IMG/VR virus record: IMGVR_UViG_3300042786_000001
DNA: 37,359 nucleotides
DNA from: a virus
Direction: 5' to 3' (one strand)
The translations under genes were made by a program, and so were the position numbers. Shown here piece after piece: positions 3,389-37,359 of the stretch; position 1 is the first letter of the stretch, and the number at the start of each line of letters is the position of its first letter. Under the pieces are notes generated by a model. That model worked only from the letters and a program-made list of their open reading frames with translations. It was not told the DNA's origin and searched no databases.

Positions 3389-3750
3389 TACATCACCTCC
3401 TTTAATTTATAATTGATAGCATCTACACTTTTATATTTAGCCAAAATGTTTTCTATATCTTTATTGTTAATATCCCAGTTAATTGCTGACCAACCTTCAT
3501 TTAGATATGTTGCTATTCTGTATGCTAAAACCATTGGTGTAACATTAAAATTAAAATGAGTGTGTGGAATTGAAATACTTTTACCATTCATTAAGCTTAC
3601 ATTAGTTTCGCCACCATTGTCGCTTAACATATACCACTTATCGTTAACTTTAATTAAGTGTGATCCATCTACCGTTTCTTTACTTTCTTGCACCTTTGTA
3701 AAATATCTTAAGTCTTTAGCAACTGCTGAATAATTATTAATTTTAATCAT
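3388..3750 (-). CDS. Hypothetical protein (120 aa), first gene after a consensus promoter
   Basis: ORF track. AAAGGGG lies upstream of the ATG and the promoter at 3784..3812 lies immediately upstream. Confidence 0.55.
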   Translation of the reverse strand: MIKINNYSAVAKDLRYFTKVQESKETVDGSHLIKVNDKWYMLSDNGGETNVSLMNGKSISIPHTHFNFNVTPMVLAYRIATYLNEGWSAINWDINNKDIENILAKYKSVDAINYKLKEVM

Positions 3751-3783
3751 TTTATCTAGCCCCTTTCGTTATCTTGTACCACC

Positions 3784-3812
3784 ATTATATATGATAATAT
3801 TACACTTGTCAA
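3784..3812 (-). promoter_or_regulatory. Consensus sigma-A type promoter: TTGACA, 17-nt spacer, TATAAT
   Basis: The minus strand reads TTGACAagtgtaatattatcataTATAAT. The -35 is at 3807..3812 and the -10 at 3784..3789. It sits in a 128-nt intergenic gap just after the terminator. Confidence 0.75.
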
Positions 3813-3822
3813 GTAAATATGT

Positions 3823-3863
3823 AAATAAAAATAAAAATCCCTACCAGCTATTAACCAGTAGGG
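3823..3863 (-). terminator. Rho-independent terminator ending the structural/lysis transcription unit
   Basis: Minus-strand RNA: CCCUACUGGU-UAAUA-GCUGGUAGGG, a 9-10 bp stem that includes G-U pairs and therefore forms only on this strand. It is followed by AUUUUUAUUUUUAUUU and lies 16 nt after the stop of 3879..4247. Confidence 0.75.
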
Positions 3864-3878
3864 AGGAGGGATAACTAT

Positions 3879-4247
3879 TTATTTTTGTTCATTTTTGCTT
3901 TGCAGTTCTTTTCCTAATTGTTCTAATATTGTTCCAATCACAGGCTCAAATTCTTCACCTGGTATTTGCTTTTTAACCTCATCAGCGATTCTTACCCAAA
4001 ATTTATCATCAATGTCTGTGTCCTCAATAATAGTCTTAACCACCTGTAAAATAATTTCATTCATAAAATTTTCATCTCCTTTTTGAAATATGCTTATAAT
4101 AATATTTGTCAACCACATTGGTATTTCATCCCTATCCAACTCATCACCATACTTATCCAACATCTCATTAGCCTTTGCAATATTTTCATCAATTGTAGGC
4201 TGTTCTGGGGTTAGGTCATCACCTCTGCTTATAGACAGCCCATTCAT
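3879..4247 (-). CDS. Acidic hypothetical protein (122 aa), last gene before the terminator
   Basis: ORF track. Its start overlaps the stop of the upstream gene. Confidence 0.55.
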   Translation of the reverse strand: MNGLSISRGDDLTPEQPTIDENIAKANEMLDKYGDELDRDEIPMWLTNIIISIFQKGDENFMNEIILQVVKTIIEDTDIDDKFWVRIADEVKKQIPGEEFEPVIGTILEQLGKELQSKNEQK

Positions 4248-4432
4248 TTTCCCAACTTTTTCACAGCATCACCACCGATAATTACCACCGCCAGCATTTC
4301 AAAAGTTTCAACAGGAATAACATTAAATATTAATAATATAGTTATATAAATTAAAAATGTTAATGCTTCCTGTATTTTATTGCTTTCAAAAAATGCTAAC
4401 CAATCATTGAAATGTTTTTTAATCCACATCAT
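4244..4432 (-). CDS. Holin-like small membrane protein (62 aa)
   Basis: Two hydrophobic segments (ALTFLIYITILLIFNVI and FEMLAVVIIGG) and a charged C-terminus KKLGK. It overlaps the endolysin gene by 4 nt. Confidence 0.5.
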   Translation of the reverse strand: MMWIKKHFNDWLAFFESNKIQEALTFLIYITILLIFNVIPVETFEMLAVVIIGGDAVKKLGK

Positions 4433-4806
4433 GTCCTGTTATCCCAATCTGCCTGCCTGTGTCTCACATCAAGATGAATAAATGTGTTATATAATCCAAC
4501 ACCTGTAAAGCCTATTTGCCTTGCTATACGCTTAATCTCATCAATTTGAAGCGGTATCGTGTGTAATGATATATCTACTGCCTTGCCATATAAATGCTGA
4601 CTGTTATCAGCACCTCCTACTTGTTTATTTCTTTCTGGACATCGATAAGCTGAATTAATTATAAGTGGCACATTAAGTCTATCTCGCAACAATTGCAACT
4701 TTTCAACTAACTCATCATCAACTCTAACGTGTCTGTGATTAGGATGAGTGCACTCAAATTCACTCAAATTAAAGTTTTTGCTTATTTGGAAATTATTGAT
4801 TGACAT
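4429..4806 (-). CDS. Peptidase M15-family (zinc D-Ala-D-Ala carboxypeptidase / VanY-like) endolysin, catalytic domain only
   Basis: 125 aa. SAYRCPERNKQVGGADNSQHLYGKAVDI and the later HLDV match the H-x6-D...H zinc triad pattern of M15 peptidases. It sits between two small membrane proteins. Confidence 0.7.
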   Translation of the reverse strand: MSINNFQISKNFNLSEFECTHPNHRHVRVDDELVEKLQLLRDRLNVPLIINSAYRCPERNKQVGGADNSQHLYGKAVDISLHTIPLQIDEIKRIARQIGFTGVGLYNTFIHLDVRHRQADWDNRT

Positions 4807-4810
4807 TCAA

Positions 4811-5038
4811 TCACCCTCTTTCATCCTCAGCTAATTTTTCCAATGCATCAAGCCTATCGTGTGCTTTATCAGCACTGTTTTCTACATGATACATTCGTTC
4901 AATTAATCTATTGTGCTTGTCCTGCTTATCTTCTATATAACTTAATTTTGTCCATACTATCCCTGCAAAAAATGCTAATGTTACTAGATTAATGCCTATT
5001 TGTAACCAAAACTCTGTTGAGAAGTCCAAATTTATCAC
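4811..5038 (-). CDS. Lysis-associated membrane protein (75 aa), holin or XhlA-like candidate
   Basis: One N-terminal TM helix (WLQIGINLVTLAFFAGIVW) followed by a charged helical tail. It lies directly upstream of the endolysin. Confidence 0.45.
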   Translation of the reverse strand: MINLDFSTEFWLQIGINLVTLAFFAGIVWTKLSYIEDKQDKHNRLIERMYHVENSADKAHDRLDALEKLAEDERG

Positions 5039-5059
5039 CTTTCCACTACGATTTTATAT

Positions 5060-5506
5060 TTACGCTGTTCTTACCCACATATAAACTGTGATGTATGGTT
5101 GAAGGTTGTTATGGGGAGAATCGCCGCCAGCTAGACTAGTAGGTACTGTACTTGTGCTGCCTCTTGCACTATAATCAAAACCACCACTGCCTCCAGAACC
5201 AAGAGCTCTTGTATAATTATGATCATGTGAGGGCATTTCGTTAACTGTTAATTGGTGTTCTTTTTCTCCACCAGTTTCGCCAATTGCATCAAAATCCGCA
5301 TCTGTGCTATCTTGGCTGACTAATACTCTACCTTCACCAAATCTTTCCCAAGTTCCAAAACCTAGCAATGTAGCAGGATTTGTGCCGTTACTTGCATTTA
5401 TATATATACTGCCAACTGGATACACAGCATTAATTGCATTTTCTTTACCTTTTTCATTTAAATTTACCGCTGAAACATCATCACTTTCTACCCATGCTCC
5501 TGCCAT
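5060..5506 (-). CDS. Tail fibre / tail-collar-domain-like protein
   Basis: 148 aa. LLGFGTWERFGEGRVLV...GETGGEKEHQLTVNEMPSHDH resembles the collar-domain signature GG..H.L...E.P.H.H. It is the last gene of the tail module. Confidence 0.55.
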   Translation of the reverse strand: MAGAWVESDDVSAVNLNEKGKENAINAVYPVGSIYINASNGTNPATLLGFGTWERFGEGRVLVSQDSTDADFDAIGETGGEKEHQLTVNEMPSHDHNYTRALGSGGSGGFDYSARGSTSTVPTSLAGGDSPHNNLQPYITVYMWVRTA

Positions 5507-22057: not shown

Positions 22058-22855
22058 CTATGGCAAATCTGCATAATAATCAGCTTCTTCAAATTGTTGC
22101 ACACCACTTTTGTAATTTAAATATTCTTCTATTGTGTCAAGTGTCATCATTTTATTAAACTTTAAATGGAACTTGTTATCTGGGTTATCTCCCATCATAA
22201 ATTTATGGTTAGTTGCATTATTAATGGATTTTTTAATATCATTTAATGTGAAATACTTAAACAACTTCTTAATTTTATACTTCCTTTTATCAGTCAACAC
22301 TTGTGGATTATAGTCAGCATCTTTAACTACCTGCTTGTAATGTTCCCAAACTTCTTCAACATCTCCTATATTATCTTTGTTGTTAGTCTTTGTAGTAATC
22401 TCTGTTAAAGAATTGTGATATTTACTGTTTCCATTTGTGCTATTTATATTTTCCTTTTGTGTTATATCATCTTTCCCGTCATTTCGCTTATCTTCTAAAA
22501 ACTCAATAAATTCTTCAACAAACTTATCTTGATTTAATTTGTAATGGATAGTGGGCGAACCATTAGCTTTTTTTAATTTAGTTTTAATTAAACCTCTATC
22601 TTCTAAATTATTTTTAGCTTTTCTAGCATAATATTTAGGAATTCCCAACTCTTCTTCCCACTCTTTATAAGTTTTATAAATATAACCATCTTTCCGCTTT
22701 TCTCTGCCAGTCCAATAAACTAATTGAGATAACATTATTCCAGTTGACGGATCACCAGCAAATTTCATAAATTCTTTGGGAACAGCTAAAACATTATCGT
22801 TACCAGTTAAATTATGAATTAAATTAAACATTTGATTTTGGAAGTCGCTACGCAT
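22058..22855 (-). CDS. Winged-helix replisome-organizer-like protein, copy 1
   Basis: 265 aa. The N-terminal wHTH-like region is LSQLVYWTGREKRKDGYIYKTYKEWEEELGIPKYYARKAKNNLEDRGLIKTK. It also has a low-complexity linker and a helical C-domain, and it ends ...EEADYYADLP like the 35446..36246 protein. Confidence 0.5.
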   Translation of the reverse strand: MRSDFQNQMFNLIHNLTGNDNVLAVPKEFMKFAGDPSTGIMLSQLVYWTGREKRKDGYIYKTYKEWEEELGIPKYYARKAKNNLEDRGLIKTKLKKANGSPTIHYKLNQDKFVEEFIEFLEDKRNDGKDDITQKENINSTNGNSKYHNSLTEITTKTNNKDNIGDVEEVWEHYKQVVKDADYNPQVLTDKRKYKIKKLFKYFTLNDIKKSINNATNHKFMMGDNPDNKFHLKFNKMMTLDTIEEYLNYKSGVQQFEEADYYADLP

Positions 22856-23624
22856 CTATATCATCATCCTCAATGGATTTGATATACTCAACATCTTCTG
22901 GTTCTAACTCAAACCACTCACCTTTTATTCTTTTATCAGAAAATCTTTCATGTAATTCTTTTTCTAAATCATAAATGTTAAAACTTTTAATTAAATTTAT
23001 TGTCTTTAATTCAAAAGGCATCTTTGGTGAAATTTCATTATATCTTCTTTTAAAATTGTTGCTAACTCCTATTTTATATTGTTTTTTATCTTTAATTTTC
23101 AATAAATAAACTACACCTGGTTTGAGGTTGTTTTTGTTGTTTTCATTTAAGTTGGCTAATTTAGCCTCCCATTCTAACTTTTCTCTTTCTATTTTTGCCT
23201 CTTTATATTTTTCGTTCGGGTTATCTACATTATCTAAAAAATATTTAGTTGGGTCAACAAAAACTTTTTTAACAACAGGGAAATTTTCATAAATTGTACT
23301 TAAAATTAACTCCCAAGTGTATGGTGGTTTTCTGTCTGGAAAATCAAAATAATATTTCATATCAGGGTCTCCATTGGAGAATGAAAATTTAGCTAATATT
23401 TCTGGGTCGTTATAAATTGTAATAGCTTGTCCCATAATTCTAGAAGCATTCAAATAATCAGCCAATGAGTAGTTTGGAATTCCATTTTCTTCTACAAAAT
23501 CACTCCACCATTTAAAATCTTCTTCACTAAAACAAGAATCACCTTCATATCCAGTTATTCCTTCAGCCATATAAGTTGTATAACCCATACCTAAACTATC
23601 AATAACATCTTTACAATTATACAT
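22848..23624 (-). CDS. T5orf172 / MUG113 (GIY-YIG superfamily-like) domain protein, copy 1, with an unknown 150-aa N-domain
   Basis: 258 aa. The C-terminal VVYLLKIKDKKQYKIGVSNNFKRRYNEISPKMPFELKTINLIKSFNIYDLEKELHERFSDKRIKGEWFELEPEDVEYI matches about half the positions of the domain in 36246..36785. Confidence 0.6.
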   Translation of the reverse strand: MYNCKDVIDSLGMGYTTYMAEGITGYEGDSCFSEEDFKWWSDFVEENGIPNYSLADYLNASRIMGQAITIYNDPEILAKFSFSNGDPDMKYYFDFPDRKPPYTWELILSTIYENFPVVKKVFVDPTKYFLDNVDNPNEKYKEAKIEREKLEWEAKLANLNENNKNNLKPGVVYLLKIKDKKQYKIGVSNNFKRRYNEISPKMPFELKTINLIKSFNIYDLEKELHERFSDKRIKGEWFELEPEDVEYIKSIEDDDIDA

Positions 23625-23752
23625 TTAACAACATCCCTTTTATTATTCCTCTTATTATTAGAGGCAGGAAGTTGGAAGAGGAATGTTTGCAACCAACAAT
23701 TCGGGAGCTACCCTATCCTGCCAATATGTACTAACTTTAACCTTACACTATA

Positions 23753-23781
23753 ATTATACCACCCAACCAACAATAAGTCAA
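23753..23781 (-). promoter_or_regulatory. Consensus-like sigma-A promoter: TTGACT, 17-nt spacer, TATAAT, with an upstream TG
   Basis: The minus strand reads TTGACTtattgttggttgggtggTATAAT. The -35 is at 23776..23781 and the -10 at 23753..23758. A leader of about 120 nt precedes the ATG at 23624. Confidence 0.7.
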
Positions 23782-23811: not shown

Positions 23812-23885
23812 TGGAGGTGGCAACCAGAATTGAACTGGTATCCCTAGATTACAAAACTAGTATTCTACCTTTAAACTATGCCACC
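23812..23885 (-). tRNA. tRNA-Thr (anticodon UGU), CCA encoded
   Basis: Minus strand: GGTGGCA-TA-GTTT-AAAGGTA-GAAT-A-CTAGT-TTTGTAA-TCTAG-GGAT-ACCAG-TTCAATT-CTGGT-TGCCACC-T-CCA. The cloverleaf was folded by hand; there is one U-U at the base of the anticodon stem. Confidence 0.8.
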
Positions 23886-24031
23886 ATATAGCTGATAGTT
23901 TTACTTCCGTCAGCTGCAGAAGATAACGGATAAAGACACCCGGCAGATACTGAGTGCTACCTTTTATCCTCCCACTTAATCTATTAAGCAACACCATCTG
24001 CCATAGCATTGCACAAGTGGTAACATATATA
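23886..24031 (-). other. 146-nt non-coding segment with several helices, abutting the 5' end of tRNA-Thr (candidate structured RNA or processing leader)
   Basis: No ORF with an RBS. Minus-strand helices are GGCAGAT(24002..23996)/ATCTGCC(23948..23942) and CTTAA/TTAAG (23988..23975). There is also an interleaved pair, TCCGT(23930..23926)/ACGGA(23910..23906) and AGCTGA(23915..23910)/TCAGCT(23895..23890). Confidence 0.3.
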
Positions 24032-24202
24032 TTATAAGTTCCTTATTACAATATACAAATTGCTATTTATCTCTTGCAGCTTTACAAATTCTTTTTTATT
24101 TAATTTTCTCAATGTATAATTGATAGCATTTGTTGTCGTTAACATATTTCCATTCTCATCTTCATAATTAATTGGAACAAATTCTATTTCTTCACAAATC
24201 AT
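24032..24202 (-). CDS. Small hypothetical protein (56 aa), below the ORF-track cutoff
   Basis: Own translation: MICEEIEFVPINYEDENGNMLTTTNAINYTLRKLNKKEFVKLQEINSNLYIVIRNL. Its ATG overlaps the upstream stop (ATGA). Confidence 0.45.
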   Translation of the reverse strand: MICEEIEFVPINYEDENGNMLTTTNAINYTLRKLNKKEFVKLQEINSNLYIVIRNL

Positions 24203-26213: not shown

Positions 26214-26289
26214 TGGTACTCCCCGTGGGATTCGAACCCACACTTTACTGGGCTTAAACCAGTTATCTCTGCCGTTGGATTAGAGGAGT
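26214..26289 (-). tRNA. tRNA with anticodon UAA (Leu by anticodon) but a short 5-nt variable loop; CCA encoded
   Basis: Minus strand: ACTCCTC-TA-ATC-CAACGGCAGA-GAT-A-ACTGG-TTTAAGC-CCAGT-AAAGT-GTGGG-TTCGAAT-CCCAC-GGGGAGT-A-CCA. Features are an A1-U72 pair, a 3-bp D stem, G37 and discriminator A. Confidence 0.7.
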
Positions 26290-26290
26290 A

Positions 26291-26380
26291 TGGTGGAGGT
26301 GGTTGGAATCGAACCAACGCAATGGCCATCCCGGCTGACGGATTTACAGTCCGTTGCTTTTCCTACTTAGCTACACCTCC
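26291..26380 (-). tRNA. tRNA-Tyr (anticodon GUA), long variable arm, CCA encoded
   Basis: Minus strand: GGAGGTG-TA-GCT-AAGTAGGAAA-AGC-A-ACGGA-CTGTAAA-TCCGT-(19-nt variable arm CAGCCGGGATGGCCATTGC)-GTTGG-TTCGATT-CCAAC-CACCTCC-A-CCA. Confidence 0.85.
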
Positions 26381-26384
26381 ATAA

Positions 26385-26461
26385 TGGTACCCGCTGTGAG
26401 ATTCGAACTCACACTAAATTGCTTCTAAGGCAATTAACTCTGCCGATTGGTATAAGCGGGT
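26385..26461 (-). tRNA. tRNA with anticodon UAG (Leu by anticodon) but a short 5-nt variable loop and a poorly paired D arm; CCA encoded
   Basis: Minus strand: ACCCGCT-TA-(TACCAATCGGCAGAGTTA)-ATTGC-CTTAGAA-GCAAT-TTAGT-GTGAG-TTCGAAT-CTCAC-AGCGGGT-A-CCA. The acceptor, anticodon and T arms pair perfectly. Confidence 0.65.
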
Positions 26462-29189: not shown

Positions 29190-29373
29190 TAAAATCAACT
29201 CTATCGTTTAAATATTCTAATATTTTATTTTCCATTAATCTTTCGTCATAACAACTAATTGTATCATCTAACACGACTTCTTCCACAAATAATTGTATAG
29301 CAAAATATAATTTATTTTTATTGACTTTAACACATCTTTCAGCTAATATTTTAGATACTTCTTCATTTCTCAT
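29176..29373 (-). CDS. Hypothetical protein (65 aa)
   Basis: ORF track. Confidence 0.45.
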   Translation of the reverse strand: MRNEEVSKILAERCVKVNKNKLYFAIQLFVEEVVLDDTISCYDERLMENKILEYLNDRVDFNDKT

Positions 29374-29833
29374 TATCTTCCCTCCAATGATGTAAACAAG
29401 TATAAGCTATTGCTATTGCATCGGCTTCATCTTTTTGCACATCCTCAATACCATACTTGCTGCACACTAATTTGTTAATATCATCTTTGCTGGCCCTACC
29501 ATCACCCGTAAATACTTTCTTAATATGTGCAGGTGTATAACCTCCTACTTCAATTTTACCATTCATTAACATTATTGCTCTGTATATTCCCAAAAAATTA
29601 GATGTACTTCTCAAAGTTTTTCTATTCGGACCATAAGGTTTTTCAAATCCAAAGTAATCAAAATCCTTTTCACGTAACTCATCAAAAAAATTGATAACAT
29701 TTAAATCCCTATCTGTGCCAGTTTTCTTAAATGTAAAATTACCACTCTCTATTAACTCATCATTTTCTGATATTATTGCCCATCCACAATGATTTGAGCG
29801 TGTGATACCGGGGTCAATTGCTAGTATATTCAG
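29363..29833 (-). CDS. ruvC: RuvC-like Holliday junction resolvase, full length only if initiated at CTG (29833..29831)
   Basis: The ORF track starts at TTG 29614 (83 aa). The frame is open 73 codons further upstream and encodes (L)NILAIDPGITRSNHCGWAII...GFEKPY. That region contains the catalytic Asp and Glu that go with the C-terminal KDEADAIAIA. GGGAGGA lies 9 nt upstream of the CTG. Confidence 0.65.
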   Translation of the reverse strand: MNILAIDPGITRSNHCGWAIISENDELIESGNFTFKKTGTDRDLNVINFFDELREKDFDYFGFEKPYGPNRKTLRSTSNFLGIYRAIMLMNGKIEVGGYTPAHIKKVFTGDGRASKDDINKLVCSKYGIEDVQKDEADAIAIAYTCLHHWREDNEK

Positions 29834-30080
29834 AAGCTTTTTCCTCCCATCTTAATTTAATTATTCCTTTATATTTTTTATTTTTATTTAACTTATTCTT
29901 AACTTTAATTGACTGCCTGCCGACTTTTGAAGCTGTCTGTATAATCATATAATTAAGTGTGAATACTTCTTTTGCTAATTCTTCTTCACCATCATTCATT
30001 AATTCATCTGCCAGCTTACTAAGTCTATTAACCTCCTCTTTATCAAAGAAATAATATACATTATCAGCTTTAAATTTCAT
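29814..30080 (-). CDS. Hypothetical protein (88 aa from the internal start)
   Basis: The ATG at 30080 (MKFKADNVYYFF...) is preceded by AGGGGTGG. The ORF-track N-terminal extension lacks an RBS. Confidence 0.5.
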   Translation of the reverse strand: MKFKADNVYYFFDKEEVNRLSKLADELMNDGEEELAKEVFTLNYMIIQTASKVGRQSIKVKNKLNKNKKYKGIIKLRWEEKASEYTSN

Positions 30081-30214
30081 ATAACCACCCCTTATAATTG
30101 AGAAGCAAGGCAATGTCTAACTGCTAGCCTCACAGTACCTCAACTTCTCAGTCGGCTAAAAATATAATAAAAGTTAATTGTTGGCACTTATTCTAATGTC
30201 GGTGTTTAATCTAA

Positions 30215-32591: not shown

Positions 32592-33923
32592 TTATTTTCT
32601 TAAAATTTCAATTTTATTTTTCATTCCCATATCCAGCTCATAACCATCCTCCCAACGAACAATATCTTTGTAGAAATACATCTTGCAGACACCTGTCCCC
32701 GATGTTCTTCCTTTCTCCTGTATCATCTCGCCTAATACTCTATTCCCTCTAGTTTTGTTCTGTTTTTCAATAGACTTTTCTTCTAAATAATCCGGTCTGT
32801 GCAACAACCATATTTCATCAGCTGTTTCCTCAATTTCACCGCCACCTCTCATATCGCTCATTTGTGGTCGCTTGCCTTCTTTGTGATTACTTCTTGTCAA
32901 CTGCGAAACTAGAATAATCGGCACATTAAGCTGTAATGCAAGACTTCTAAGGCTTCGACATATACCACCTATTTCTCGCACCATATTAGCTCTCTTGTCA
33001 TATCCTATATTTTGCAGATAATCTACAACTATCACATCGAGTTGGCCCATATCCTTGTTAATTTTTCTGCAAACAGCTGCGATGTCATCAACATTCATAT
33101 TTCTTTTTTCGCTGATGAATAAGTTTTTCTCATACTTATCTAATATATTATAAGCATTAGCAATAGCATTTTGTTGAACCTCTGATAACTTTTGAGCCTT
33201 GTCATAATCATTAGCAGGCACACAACTTTCGCTAACTATTAAGCGATCAACCACTTCTTTTGCGTCCATTTCAAGCGATATCATAGCTGCTTTGCCACCA
33301 TTGAATAATATATTTCTCATCACCTTAATCGCAAAAGCTGTCTTACCTACCGACGAGTTAGCTCCTAATACCGTAAGGTGTTTTCGCTTAAGTCCGCCCC
33401 ACTTGTTGTCTATCTGATACAATCCAGTCTTAACGCTATCATCACCTTCACCTTCTAATCGCTCCACATAGTTGCCATACGCCTTGATTAGAGCATCGCC
33501 AAGCAGGTAGTTAGTTTCGTCATTATCCAGCTCTGAAGTAACTTTAAATATCATTTCTTGCGATTTGTGTAGATACTCGTCAATATCTAAATCTTTCTTT
33601 TTTGCTAAGTTATAAATATCTTTGCTGACGCTTTTTAGATTGTGTCTAATATAATTTTTGTGCAGCAAATCTAAACTATCATCAAACTCGTGAAATAAGT
33701 CTTTTTCTGGCAGTTCGTCAGCAGCAACTTCTACTTCAGTCGCTAGCTTAACTATGCTTAACTGTTCGTTATTATTCCTTTTTTTAACTATCCAATTATA
33801 TATTTTCTTCATCTTATTATCAGTAAAATAATTAGGTTTACATTTTTGTATTAAATCATCAGCTAACTCTGGATCGGCAAGTGTTGCAGCTATCACATTT
33901 TTTTCTAACTCAATTTGGTTCAA
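32592..33923 (-). CDS. dnaB: Replicative DNA helicase, DnaB family
   Basis: 443 aa. Walker A GANSSVGKTAF, Walker B VIVVDYLQ, SQLTRS and a DnaB-type N-terminal domain. Confidence 0.9.
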   Translation of the reverse strand: MNQIELEKNVIAATLADPELADDLIQKCKPNYFTDNKMKKIYNWIVKKRNNNEQLSIVKLATEVEVAADELPEKDLFHEFDDSLDLLHKNYIRHNLKSVSKDIYNLAKKKDLDIDEYLHKSQEMIFKVTSELDNDETNYLLGDALIKAYGNYVERLEGEGDDSVKTGLYQIDNKWGGLKRKHLTVLGANSSVGKTAFAIKVMRNILFNGGKAAMISLEMDAKEVVDRLIVSESCVPANDYDKAQKLSEVQQNAIANAYNILDKYEKNLFISEKRNMNVDDIAAVCRKINKDMGQLDVIVVDYLQNIGYDKRANMVREIGGICRSLRSLALQLNVPIILVSQLTRSNHKEGKRPQMSDMRGGGEIEETADEIWLLHRPDYLEEKSIEKQNKTRGNRVLGEMIQEKGRTSGTGVCKMYFYKDIVRWEDGYELDMGMKNKIEILRK

Positions 33924-33925
33924 AC

Positions 33926-34420
33926 TTATTCCCCCTCATAATATTCGCACTCATCTAGATTATAATCAAATCTGCATCTACCTACACTACATATTCTACA
34001 AAATTCATCTCTAACATTTTTAGGTTCTTCACCGGTGAATTTTGACCTGTATTCTGTAAATGTTCCAAACTCTTTTTTGAAAAAATATAGTGATGGATAT
34101 TCTATCATTTTTTCTTTAGCAAAATAAACTATACCTTTATAATCTAATATCCCATTTTTAATACACTTTAAAGTTACATAATTTATCTCATCAATATCAA
34201 ATTTATCATGAAAATTGGTTGATTGTTTTTTAAGTTTATCTTCTCCAAAAACTTCAATTATCATATTATTCCAACTATCATATACTTTGTAGATAGTATG
34301 CAGGCTTGGATATTTATCATTATGTGCTGAAAAATCTTGAAATTTTACACTTGAAAAACTATTCATTTCCTTTTTAGCTTTTATAATGACTTTTGGAATA
34401 TTATCCTTATTCCATTGCAA
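33926..34420 (-). CDS. Hypothetical protein with two internal YPSL-containing repeats and a C-terminal Cys cluster (TTG start). Candidate helicase-associated factor
   Basis: 164 aa. GGAGGTG lies 5 nt upstream of the TTG. The repeats are KYPSLHTIYKVYDSWNNMI and EYPSLYFFKKEFGTFTEYR, followed by CRICSVGRCRFDYNLDEC. It lies directly upstream of dnaB. Confidence 0.5.
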   Translation of the reverse strand: MQWNKDNIPKVIIKAKKEMNSFSSVKFQDFSAHNDKYPSLHTIYKVYDSWNNMIIEVFGEDKLKKQSTNFHDKFDIDEINYVTLKCIKNGILDYKGIVYFAKEKMIEYPSLYFFKKEFGTFTEYRSKFTGEEPKNVRDEFCRICSVGRCRFDYNLDECEYYEGE

Positions 34421-35445: not shown

Positions 35446-36246
35446 TTATTCCTCCCTCAAATCTGCATAATAGTCTATTTCTTCTTCGGGCTGGTTAAGT
35501 GTGTAACCTTTATCTTCTTTCATTCTAGTTTCCAACTTAACTGCCTGTTTCCGCAACTTACTTGCTGATAATATATTCTTATACCAGAAATCATCCTCCT
35601 GACACCAATCAATTATCTCCTTAATTTCATCCCAACTATATCCACTATCCCCACCAACTGTGCCTAATCTATGAAGACGGTCCATTGCTAACGACCAACT
35701 TTGCATAGCTTTTGCAGAATCTTTAGGAACGGGCTGGTTAGGTATGTTAGACTTAATTTTCTTTTTGAGATACATTGCTAACTGATAAGGTTTGCTGTTT
35801 TTATCAAATTTAACTTTATCGTTCTGACTTTTAGAGTCGGAACAAGAAGTATTACTTTGTTTATTAGTTCTTTGTTCAATGTGTTCTTTATTTATATCCC
35901 CCTTTTCCACCTTTGGATTATCCACACTTGGTTTTTCTAAGTCTGGATTTTCTAACTGTGGAGTTTCATAAACTTCATACTCATGAACAAACTTTCCTTC
36001 ATCATTTTTATACTTTCTATAAACTATATAACCAGCTTCTTTTAATTCTTTAATGCCGCTTCTAAGTGATGTTATACCATCGCTGGCGTGTCTTTTGATC
36101 TCGCTAGTCTTAACCTCCCAGTCTGGTGGCAATGATAATAAATAGACAAGTATTCCTCTAGCTTTCCAACTAAGACCATCGTCTTGCAATGTATTATTAT
36201 CTAATACTGTAAAATTATCTTCTTTTTTGTTGCGATATACGCCCAT
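35446..36246 (-). CDS. Winged-helix replisome organizer / replication initiator-like protein, copy 2
   Basis: 266 aa. The N-terminal wHTH is LSWKARGILVYLLSLPPDWEVKTSEIKRHASDGITSLRSGIKELKEAGYIVYRK. The linker is repeat-bearing, and the DnaD-like C-domain is PYQLAMYL...WSLAMDRLHRL...FWYKNILSASKLRKQ. It ends EEIDYYADLREE. Confidence 0.65.
   Translation of the reverse strand: MGVYRNKKEDNFTVLDNNTLQDDGLSWKARGILVYLLSLPPDWEVKTSEIKRHASDGITSLRSGIKELKEAGYIVYRKYKNDEGKFVHEYEVYETPQLENPDLEKPSVDNPKVEKGDINKEHIEQRTNKQSNTSCSDSKSQNDKVKFDKNSKPYQLAMYLKKKIKSNIPNQPVPKDSAKAMQSWSLAMDRLHRLGTVGGDSGYSWDEIKEIIDWCQEDDFWYKNILSASKLRKQAVKLETRMKEDKGYTLNQPEEEIDYYADLREE
35899..35958 (-). repeat. Four tandem 15-bp repeats (iteron-like) inside the organizer gene linker
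   Basis: Minus strand: CAGTTAGAAAATCCA / GACTTAGAAAAACCA / AGTGTGGATAATCCA / AAGGTGGAAAAGGGG. The first two match at 12/15 and the last two are degenerate. They encode the peptide QLENP-DLEKP-SVDNP-KVEKG. Confidence 0.55.
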
Positions 36247-36785
36247 TAAATCACTTCCTCATGTTCAGCTTCATTTTTAATATAATTTACATCATTTTTA
36301 TCTAATCTAAACCACTCACCATTAACTCTTTTATTTTCGAATTTATTATGAAGAAATTTTTCTAACTTATAAATAGCTTTGTGTTTTATTTTATTTTCAA
36401 CAGTTATATTAAATGGAAGTTTTGGAGTTAATTGATTAAGCCTTTTATCCATATTAGTGGTAACTCCGATTTTATAAATATTATCTTCTTTAGATTTCAA
36501 CAAATAAACTATTCCCTCTTTATATTTTGTTTTATTTTTATTTCTATTGACAGCGTCTTCATATGTTTTATTGACAAACTCTCTAGCTTCATTATTTTCG
36601 TTTTTAATATAATCTTCATCAGCTAATTCTAAATATTTCTGCATTTCTTTAATCATTTCTTTTACCTCTGTTTTTGGTGGCATCTCTAAACCACCATTGA
36701 TAAATACTTTAACTTTTTCACCTTCGATTGAAATTTCTTTAACCATAAACGGCATATGCTCTCTAAAATATTTCACACTTATCAC
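36246..36785 (-). CDS. T5orf172 / MUG113 (GIY-YIG superfamily-like) domain protein, copy 2
   Basis: 179 aa. C-terminal GIVYLLKSKEDNIYKIGVTTNMDKRLNQLTPKLPFNITVENKIKHKAIYKLEKFLHNKFENKRVNGEWFRLDKNDVNYI. Its stop overlaps the start of the organizer gene. Confidence 0.6.
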   Translation of the reverse strand: MISVKYFREHMPFMVKEISIEGEKVKVFINGGLEMPPKTEVKEMIKEMQKYLELADEDYIKNENNEAREFVNKTYEDAVNRNKNKTKYKEGIVYLLKSKEDNIYKIGVTTNMDKRLNQLTPKLPFNITVENKIKHKAIYKLEKFLHNKFENKRVNGEWFRLDKNDVNYIKNEAEHEEVI

Positions 36786-36793
36786 TCCATTTT

Positions 36794-36955
36794 TTAATAT
36801 TTTATTTCTTCTAAATATTCGTCTAGATCGTCTTCTTTAATTCTAAATCCTTTACCAACTTTGTAAGCATCAATCTTTCTTTCTCTAATGTATCTTCTAA
36901 CTGTATCTGGATGCAAATCTAATATTTTTGCAACTTCCTCAACTTTATAAAACAT
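36794..36955 (-). CDS. Excisionase/MerR-type HTH DNA-binding protein (53 aa), first gene of the early operon
   Basis: Own translation: MFYKVEEVAKILDLHPDTVRRYIRERKIDAYKVGKGFRIKEDDLDEYLEEIKY. AGGGGAGGGAAAGAG lies upstream of the ATG. It is below the ORF-track cutoff. Confidence 0.65.
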   Translation of the reverse strand: MFYKVEEVAKILDLHPDTVRRYIRERKIDAYKVGKGFRIKEDDLDEYLEEIKY

Positions 36956-36979: not shown

Positions 36980-37014
36980 ATTATATCATATAATCTTATA
37001 TTATCAAGTGATAA
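36980..37014 (-). promoter_or_regulatory. Early promoter (TTGATA, 16-nt spacer, TGaTATAAT) overlapped by the perfect palindrome TTATCA-N2-TGATAA
   Basis: The minus strand reads cTTATCActTGATAatataagattatatgaTATAAT. The -35 is at 37002..37007, the -10 at 36980..36985 and the palindrome at 37001..37014. Confidence 0.65.
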
Positions 37015-37032: not shown

Positions 37033-37359
37033 TTATTTTAATAGTTTTCTATCCAACTCATTACAACACTTTCTAACCAACTTTTTAATCTGCTTGTAAT
37101 CCTCTCTACCACCCTTAAAATCCTTAGCTAACTCTATACATTTATCCTCTAATTCATCTGGATATTCAAAGTAAAACTTTAACTCTCTTTGCTGTTGTCT
37201 ATTTAAGTTATCTAATAGCCTCTTAATAGCCTTTTTAGCTTTCAGTAGGTGTTTATACCTTCTTTCAGCATGAAGGCGTAAATCAGCTATTTGTATGGCT
37301 CTAGCACCTACTGCGTCATAGTTGCTGTTCTGCTGTACATAAATCTTATCATAGTCAAT
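37033..37359 (-). CDS. C-terminal part of the wrap-around ORF (see 1..265); stop TAA at 37033..37035
   Basis: Own translation: ...KAKKAIKRLLDNLNRQQQRELKFYFEYPDELEDKCIELAKDFKGGREDYKQIKKLVRKCCNELDRKLLK. Bases 37233..37359 duplicate 1..127. Confidence 0.5.
   Translation of the reverse strand: MDYDKIYVQQNSNYDAVGARAIQIADLRLHAERRYKHLLKAKKAIKRLLDNLNRQQQRELKFYFEYPDELEDKCIELAKDFKGGREDYKQIKKLVRKCCNELDRKLLK
37233..37359. repeat. Right copy of the exact 127-bp terminal direct repeat
   Basis: Identical to 1..127 on direct reading. Confidence 0.95.

Follow-up and report, generated by a model that had tools for sequence, protein, structure and literature searches.

Two gene pairs on a closed phage genome

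The window analysed here is the whole of IMG/VR virus record IMGVR_UViG_3300042786_000001, a stretch of 37,359 nt, and the element under study is a gene pair at 22058-23781 in which a gene for a protein with a T5orf172 domain (T5_1) is followed by the gene for a replisome organizer (Org_1). A second pair of the same architecture (T5_2 and Org_2) is present as well, and the two organizer cassettes lie ~13.5 kb apart on a ~37.2-kb circle. All four reading frames given in a preliminary description of this DNA were recovered on the minus strand, which carries all genes of the window, and the claimed overlaps of 1-8 nt were found to be 8 nt for T5_1/Org_1 and 1 nt for T5_2/Org_2 (Table 1). The window represents a phage genome closed into a circle of ~37,232 bp, since an exact 127-nt terminal repeat occurs at 1-127 and 37233-37359 and relatives read continuously across the junction. 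In INPHARED, no close DNA relative was detected among isolated phages; the nearest large terminases were ~50% identical and came from Aeribacillus and Clostridium phages. Relatives (L-numbered loci) were found by searches with the large terminase, the DnaB-type helicase and the T5orf172 domain. Two of these loci, L013 and L143, are parts of one contig, i.e., they represent one phage.

Table 1. Features of the two gene pairs and their surroundings in the window
Feature	Position	Strand	Description
T5_1	22848-23624	minus	258 aa; helical orphan N-domain (aa 1-166), C-terminal T5orf172/MUG113 domain (aa ~167-251)
Org_1	22058-22855	minus	265 aa; winged-helix N-domain, disordered linker, helical C-domain, tail EEADYYADLP
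Tandem 22-nt repeats (repeat family D1)	22413..22476		2.2-2.4 copies in the linker-coding DNA of Org_1; Tandem Repeats Finder (TRF) score 64; putative iteron array/second origin
T5_1 5' leader	23625..23752	minus	conserved, not unusually structured
Promoter of the first pair	23753..23781	minus	sigma-70-type, TTGACT-17-TATAAT, extended -10 TG, 11/12 match; upstream of T5_1
tRNA-Thr (UGU)	23812..23885	minus	found by ARAGORN and Rfam; directly upstream of the promoter of the first pair; upstream edge of the variable slot
DnaB-family helicase gene	32592-33923	minus	downstream of Org_2
T5_2	36246-36785	minus	179 aa, GTG start; short N-domain, C-terminal T5orf172/MUG113 domain
Org_2	35446-36246	minus	266 aa; winged helix (HTH_36-like), linker, DnaD-like C-domain, tail EEIDYYADLREE
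Tandem 15-nt repeats	35903..35967		~4.3 copies in the linker-coding DNA of Org_2; TRF score 51; putative iteron array/first origin
Excisionase/MerR-like helix-turn-helix (HTH) gene	36794..36955	minus	53 aa; travels with T5_2 in a variable segment
Promoter of the second pair	36980..37007	minus	sigma-70-type, TTGATA-16-TATAAT, extended -10 TG, 11/12 match; upstream of the excisionase-like HTH gene, T5_2 and Org_2

T5_1 and T5_2 carry predicted nuclease domains

Profile searches agreed with the earlier recognition of a C-terminal domain of ~85 aa, in both proteins, as T5orf172/MUG113 of the GIY-YIG superfamily. Against Pfam, T5_1 scored 60.3 bits for MUG113 (cut-off 22.3; E = 3e-16) and 51.6 bits for T5orf172 (cut-off 20; E = 1e-13), while T5_2 reached 59.6 bits (E = 5e-16) and 51.7 bits (E = 1e-13), again above the curated cut-offs. 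The two domains, which had been said to align at about half of their positions, were 51% identical over 88 aa (E = 4e-27), and a six-frame hidden Markov model scan showed them to be the only T5orf172 copies of the window. Residues Y173, (Y183) K184-I185-G186, R194, H225 and E236-W237-F238 of T5_1 were invariant or nearly so among 20-21 homologues. The conserved Arg and Glu correspond to residues required for the activity of Odn, a T5orf172 nuclease of phage ICP1, which keeps this Arg and Glu and is inactivated by the exchange E180A (PMC8263062).

The AlphaFold2 (AF2) model of T5_1 had an overall predicted local distance difference test score (pLDDT) of 82 and consisted of a helical N-domain and a compact alpha/beta C-domain with pLDDT >90. 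A fold search in BFVD returned 107 matches with E<1e-3, and among the best 50 of these 107 every named one was a T5orf172, MUG113, GIY-YIG or Bro-type viral protein; those matches that were restricted to the C-domain (~80-90 columns) had a root-mean-square deviation of ~1-2 A. Solved structures gave weak hints (Slx1, prob 0.41; T4 EndoII, i.e., endonuclease II, E = 0.16). The C-domains of T5_1 and T5_2 are predicted GIY-YIG-like nuclease domains, and both proteins would be expected to cut DNA. For the N-domain of T5_1, Foldseek against PDB yielded nothing significant, and among 1.84 billion representative proteins a full HMMER search revealed a single relative. An Odn-like origin of the T5 N-domains from an organizer was rejected for the window on comparison of the T5 family with the organizer family in hhalign (prob 0.1). 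We also rejected membership of a defence system, as the PADLOC matches were weak and limited to the nuclease domain (PDC-S57, 2e-10 and 5e-6; PD-Lambda-1, 7e-6), with none for the organizers. The G+C content of the T5 genes was 25-28% versus 33% for the genome.

Since T5orf172 was originally annotated as a DNA-binding domain and a domesticated T5orf172-related regulator has been described (10.1101/2020.11.28.402263; PMC10448857), both T5 proteins might be catalytically silent regulators of organizer or late-gene expression, as CapR is in the PLE satellite; the strong promoter ahead of each T5 gene would suit such a role. However, the invariance of Tyr, Arg, His and Glu across divergent homologues argues for retained enzymatic activity, and the T5 genes are dispensable in relatives (see below). 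We regard a purely regulatory role as the least probable of the explanations considered here.

The two organizers are unrelated except for a common tail

The downstream proteins had been described as winged-helix proteins of the DnaD/replisome-organizer kind. This identity was borne out for both by PHROG and, for Org_1, by AF2 and Foldseek as well; neither organizer reached the cut-off of any Pfam family. Org_1 matched phrog_9773 (replication initiation, O-like; 4e-25), phrog_6493 (DnaD-like; 9e-24) and phrog_428 (9e-18), and over its N-terminal ~155 residues it shared 39% identity with initiators of replication from Staphylococcus phages, phiMR11 among them. Org_2 matched phrog_4707 (replication initiation; 1e-30), phrog_2514 (DnaD-like; 7e-23) and phrog_4880 (replisome organizer; 1e-14). 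AF2 modelled Org_1 with a winged helix (aa 27-107) and a helical C-domain (aa 163-246), between which lies a disordered linker (aa 132-161). In Foldseek, a DnaD model ranked first over the full length (prob 0.97, E = 8e-3), ahead of RepA_N initiators and winged-helix regulators, and no match reached E<=1e-3; the modelled fold of the N-domain appears to resemble that of RepA_N plasmid initiators.

The gene for the DnaB-family helicase lies 1.5 kb downstream of Org_2. Org_1 lies outside the helicase/loader module, with a tRNA gene on one side and the terminase genes on the other, and metagenomic homologues of its N-domain occupy canonical organizer-loader-helicase modules. Org_2 is read as the primary replisome organizer and Org_1 as a second one. 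Two organizers per genome were found in relatives, too, for example in the L013/L143 contig. The preliminary description had placed only the second pair in a replication module with iteron-like repeats and DnaB. This holds for the helicase and for the pre-terminase position of Org_1, but repeats are present inside both organizer genes.

Org_1 and Org_2 showed no significant similarity outside a common C-terminal tail, E-x-DYYADL. For this reason, and because the nuclease domain of T5_1 is 72% identical to that of L014, another phage, versus 51% to that of T5_2, the pairs are not a duplicated cassette. A recent duplication of the two genes was thus rejected, and T5_1 and T5_2 are not recent duplicates of each other. 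The DYYADL tail is common to otherwise unrelated organizers of both slots (window 22058-22075 and 35446-35472; L010, L011 and L143) and also terminates small winged-helix proteins of L012 and L014. Organizers of other phages bear comparable acidic-aromatic tails, some of them resembling the tip of SSB (e.g., DDIPF, EEIPF). These observations suggest that proteins with the DYYADL tail dock through it on one and the same partner, and the helicase of the phage or a replisome protein of the host would be the probable candidate.

In the organizers of relatives, different repeat arrays occur at the same location in the linker. Between close relatives, the part encoding the winged helix is swapped together with the repeats, whereas the C-domain is retained. 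An initiator and its cognate iterons would be expected to behave in this way, and exchange of N-domain and iterons as modules has been described in phage initiators (Smug et al. 2023, PMC10684548). We read the linker repeats as putative cognate origins of the two organizers. The repeat unit of Org_2, TCCAGAGTTAG, occurred six times in the window with <=1 mismatch, versus 0.36 expected (minus strand: 14209, 15281, 32161, 33863, 35937, 35952). This excess was not accepted as evidence for binding sites, as the unit encodes Pro-Glu-Leu in several genes and its excess may arise at the codon level.

The nuclease genes are optional and move independently of the organizers

In the early slot, L144, L146 and L147 carry orthologues of Org_2 at 94% identity without any T5orf172 gene, and the homology of their DNA to the window starts 9 nt before the start codon of Org_2. 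In L146, the segment 37201..36255 is replaced by a gene for a 318-aa HTH protein. L143 and L148 likewise lack a nuclease here, and their organizer shares the C-domain and tail with Org_2 but not the winged helix; their homology resumes at window position 35822, inside the organizer linker. The reverse situation was encountered in L064, where the T5_2 gene is 98.4% identical at the nucleotide level (window 36822..36244) and the sequence switches exactly at the T5_2 stop codon to an unrelated phage_rep_org_N organizer (TIGR01714, E = 1e-39).

The pre-terminase slot was compared in seven genomes, including the window. The window has a T5orf172 gene followed by a full organizer, and L007 a related T5orf172 gene followed by an organizer with another winged helix. 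L014 contains a T5orf172 gene with another N-domain and then two small winged-helix proteins, the second of which ends in DDIDYYADLK. In L012, the same two small proteins are preceded by a 201-aa protein (508-1113) in which a C-domain of the Org_1 type is fused to an HNH domain (PF01844, E = 7e-7). L010, L011 and L013 each have an organizer, of the Org_1 type in L010 and L011, and no nuclease; in the L013/L143 phage, both slots are taken by organizers and T5orf172 genes are absent altogether. Homology breakpoints coincided with the ends of nuclease genes or lay in the organizer linkers (23887, 23733, 23622, 22410, 36255 and 35822); homology to L011 stops at 23887, and a further breakpoint with L011, at 22410, marks the edge of the Org_1 repeat array.

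These comparisons indicate that the T5orf172 genes are facultative and that their movements have been independent of those of the organizers. The aligned loci display two hallmarks of homing genes, namely presence/absence polymorphism and a discrete mobile block at recombination boundaries beside a conserved or essential gene.

The occurrence of two unrelated nuclease families (T5orf172 and HNH) beside the second organizer would also fit a programmed break that switches the mode of replication. Org_1 would bind its repeats near the packaging genes, the adjacent nuclease would cut, and the recombination and replication toolkit of the window (exonuclease, Erf, RuvC and SSB) would convert the break to recombination-dependent concatemer synthesis. 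In SPP1, fork stalling at the gp38-bound oriR, ~13 kb from oriL, has been proposed as the trigger of the theta-to-sigma transition (PMC6316719). Yet three of the seven genomes lack a nuclease in the pre-terminase slot, the T5orf172 gene at the first organizer is left unexplained, and the scheme is inferential throughout. We consider it very unlikely.

T5orf172 genes are found directly upstream of organizer genes

A neighbourhood sample was drawn from 80 IMG/VR loci with the closest T5orf172 domains, covering flanks of +/-4 kb and 1393 open reading frames. Among the genes immediately downstream of T5orf172 genes, 10 of 64 were organizer-like, with gaps of -17 to +2 nt, nearly all of them overlaps of 1-17 nt; at the other positions sampled, no organizer-like reading frame was detected, so that in the 78 T5orf172 loci outside the window all organizers that could be recognised directly followed the nuclease gene. 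Families of the small terminase were the other recurrent downstream neighbour. Adjacency and small-terminase neighbours together agree with Barth et al. 2023. The adjacency of nuclease and organizer is thus non-random. The arrangement for which a neighbourhood search had been suggested, with T5orf172 genes preceding genes of the winged-helix or DnaD-like type, is enriched at the +1 position, but is not conserved among close relatives.

The preliminary description had gone further and deduced from a "strict pairing" a functional two-component unit that could not be assigned to any described system. In such an obligate unit, the T5orf172 protein and the downstream organizer would cooperate at an origin, for instance by nicking organizer-bound DNA to start or redirect replication. 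The genes overlap and are probably translationally coupled in both window pairs and in 9-10 other phages, organizer-like genes are found solely at +1, and nucleases fused to parts of organizers exist in L012 and L083. The pairing is not strict, however: organizers occur without a nuclease (L010, L011, L013, L144, L146 and L147), including those of 94% identity and both organizers of one relative genome that has no T5orf172 gene at all; T5_2 precedes a non-homologous organizer in L064; N-domains of the T5_1 type accompany organizers with different winged helices in the window and L007; an HNH protein takes the place in L012; and the commonest other downstream neighbour, the small terminase, is no replication gene. 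Moreover, putative homing genes (PMC10448857) and Odn (PMC8263062) already offer described systems. An obligate unit therefore seems to us quite unlikely.

The fusion in L083, a 44-kb contig of an unrelated phage, deserves separate mention. Here, at 3701-5091, a T5orf172 protein with an organizer-type winged-helix N-domain is encoded directly upstream of an organizer gene, and the fused winged helix is 47% identical to that of Org_2 of the window (E = 2e-11) and 36% to that of its own downstream organizer. This is exactly the architecture of Odn, in which ICP1 combines T5orf172 with the DNA-binding domain of a satellite initiator and cuts the satellite origin (PMC8263062; PMC10448857). By analogy, the window nucleases might be domesticated weapons that benefit the phage by destroying the origins of competing phages or satellites with a rival organizer/iteron type. 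The swapping of organizer N-domains and iteron blocks among relatives is the pattern expected under such conflict. The T5 proteins of the window, however, have no initiator-derived domain according to the hhalign comparison given above, the defence-model matches are weak and confined to the domain level, and the satellite or other target is purely hypothetical. We judge a weapon of this kind to be just as improbable as the obligate unit.

A probable explanation: dual organizer cassettes with superimposed homing-like nuclease genes

We favour, with a probability of roughly 60%, the explanation that two separate things are superimposed at these loci: a dual set of organizer cassettes and optional T5orf172 genes resembling homing endonuclease genes. 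The lineage has an early cassette, consisting of Org_2 followed by the DnaB-type helicase, and a pre-terminase cassette with Org_1. Each organizer would bind the repeats in its own gene as cognate origin, and the common DYYADL tail would let both dock on one partner, so that the two organizers could fire or mark two origins through recruitment of that shared partner. The T5orf172 nucleases, in turn, would most likely cleave those alleles of co-infecting relatives that lack the nuclease gene, close to the organizer/origin region. Repair would copy the nuclease gene together with the adjacent origin-binding/iteron block, and the nuclease gene would spread in this way. Among the origins that had been offered for the first pair, a selfish hitchhiking cassette comes closest for the nuclease genes and a second origin system for Org_1.

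Several points weigh against this explanation. The near-universal overlap of start and stop codons and the presence of two pairs in one genome could reflect functional coupling. The fusion of HNH with an organizer C-domain in L012 and that of T5orf172 with a winged helix in L083 suggest that the nucleases might cooperate with the origin machinery or target it, and might not be purely selfish. Relatives differ by segment replacement, not by clean insertion. The linker repeats are short and imperfect, and they also encode a repetitive peptide. In Foldseek, HMMER and hhalign, the N-domains of T5_1 and T5_2 showed no recognisable DNA-binding fold, which a homing endonuclease needs. Finally, the cleavage site, the target and the homing event are putative.

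A bolder proposal is a gene drive at the level of the replicon, which we put forward tentatively and consider unlikely. T5orf172 or HNH nucleases and organizer/iteron cassettes would co-evolve; in co-infection, a nuclease directed by its own domain or by fused or borrowed organizer parts would cut rival origin or organizer alleles and thereby cause the competitor's origin-binding domain and iterons to be exchanged for its own, and the break could additionally trigger concatemeric replication at the second origin. If this were true, origin specificity in small siphophages would be a target of nuclease-driven conflict, and this would account for the fact that few phage modules are as mosaic as the organizer N-domains and iterons.

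Promoters, tRNA genes and neighbouring genes

The promoter claimed for the first pair is present (Table 1) and is conserved together with tRNA-Thr in L012. The first pair thus has its own promoter, as had been described, but this is not distinctive, as a strong promoter also precedes the second. The claim of a structured leader did not stand: the leader of T5_1 folded no better than shuffled sequence (z = +0.40) and had no Rfam match, and a structured leader or riboswitch was therefore rejected. Its sequence is conserved, though, being 98% identical in L014, where it precedes the T5orf172 gene with a different N-domain.

The window contains four tRNA genes, Leu-UAA, Tyr, Leu-UAG and Thr (26214-26461 and 23812-23885). 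We considered tRNA-Thr as the attachment site of an integrated island and rejected this idea, as no direct repeat of the tRNA 3'-end was found within 5 kb. The tRNA set before the pre-terminase slot varies among the window and L010-L013 (Thr; Pro and Thr; Asn; Asn-Glu-Asp), and the slot is more aptly seen as a hot spot of mosaicism whose tRNA content differs from phage to phage. Just upstream of tRNA-Thr lies a GC-richer segment (23886-24035, minus strand), which is 96-99% conserved in L010, L012 and L013. Its fold z is -1.98 and Rfam gave no match; the segment might represent a small RNA or the remnant of a tRNA.

A 164-aa gene (33926-34420) is located directly upstream of the DnaB-type helicase gene. 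It is unlikely to encode an essential helicase loader, because it is absent from L143 and L144, where the helicase follows a 62-aa gene. The RuvC-like gene seems short or split (window ~29360-30120; L001 4053-4262), with a match of 69 aa versus 175 aa in L007 (3601-4128). In L025 (8581-10846), the large-terminase match falls into two pieces ~1 kb apart, which suggests that the terL gene is interrupted by an intron or an inserted endonuclease gene. The early region of L007 contains a canonical GIY-YIG gene (PF01541; 6422-7117), and so free-standing nuclease genes of several kinds are evidently present in this phage group.

Comparison with known systems

The nuclease genes share with the Seg/Mob homing genes of T4-like phages, which are of the HNH or GIY-YIG type, an intergenic and optional location and the occurrence of different nuclease families in one slot; flanking markers would be co-converted in both cases. 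Classical GIY-YIG homing enzymes begin with the nuclease domain and end with the DNA-binding domain. T5_1 and T5_2 show the reverse domain order.

A closer match is provided by the T5orf172 genes of ICP1, T5-like and other phages, which have been described as putative homing endonuclease genes beside essential genes for terminase or replisome, at boundaries of genetic exchange and with shuffled DNA-binding domains (Barth, Dunham & Seed 2023, PMC10448857). The window genes have the same Pfam domain, are free-standing, lie beside essential genes, are variably present, are found at exchange boundaries and have shuffled non-nuclease domains. They differ in that their N-domains are neither zinc-finger domains (CapR, DUF723, DUF4397) nor RepA_N, that of T5_1 being an orphan, and in that the +1 neighbour is specifically a replisome organizer, twice in one small genome. 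With Odn (ICP1 Gp88, PMC8263062) they have in common the T5orf172 domain, the conserved Arg and Glu, and a link to initiator or origin specificity. In the window, though, the nuclease and the DNA-binding domain of the initiator reside on separate polypeptides with no domain in common, while a true architectural analogue of Odn is found in L083.

Regarding the organizers, SPP1 is an instructive counterpart. Its oriL lies inside gene 38 and its oriR ~13 kb away, and both are bound by gp38 (PMC6316719). The window phage is likewise a siphophage; its portal is of the SPP1 type, its terminase of the headful type and its helicase of the DnaB family, and it has one origin-like array in an organizer gene and a second one ~13 kb away. 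Whereas SPP1 uses one organizer for both origins, each array of the window is embedded in its own organizer gene, and the two organizers have unrelated DNA-binding and C-domains, with the tail alone in common. A G39P-like loader was not detected in the window. The swapping of winged helix and in-gene repeats as a block next to a conserved C-domain parallels the lambdoid O-type and DnaD-like initiators (PMC10684548), from which the window differs by its two initiators per genome and by nuclease genes abutting the swapped block.

The comparison removes a false lead, since the supposed nuclease-organizer pair is a known class of mobile nuclease gene placed before an essential gene and no new two-protein machine. 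At the same time, it brings out that T5orf172 genes markedly prefer the position immediately upstream of replisome-organizer genes, and that the principle of Odn reaches beyond Vibrio ICP1 and PLE through natural fusions, in which T5orf172 is joined to an organizer winged helix or HNH to an organizer C-domain. An SPP1-like lineage that keeps two initiator/origin cassettes with only a docking tail in common offers a tractable case in which to ask how one helicase would be recruited to two origins and what role a second origin would play beside the packaging genes. In summary, the nuclease genes are members of a described kind, and the dual initiators with their common tail as well as the tight +1 association, fusions included, are variants of known themes within existing categories.

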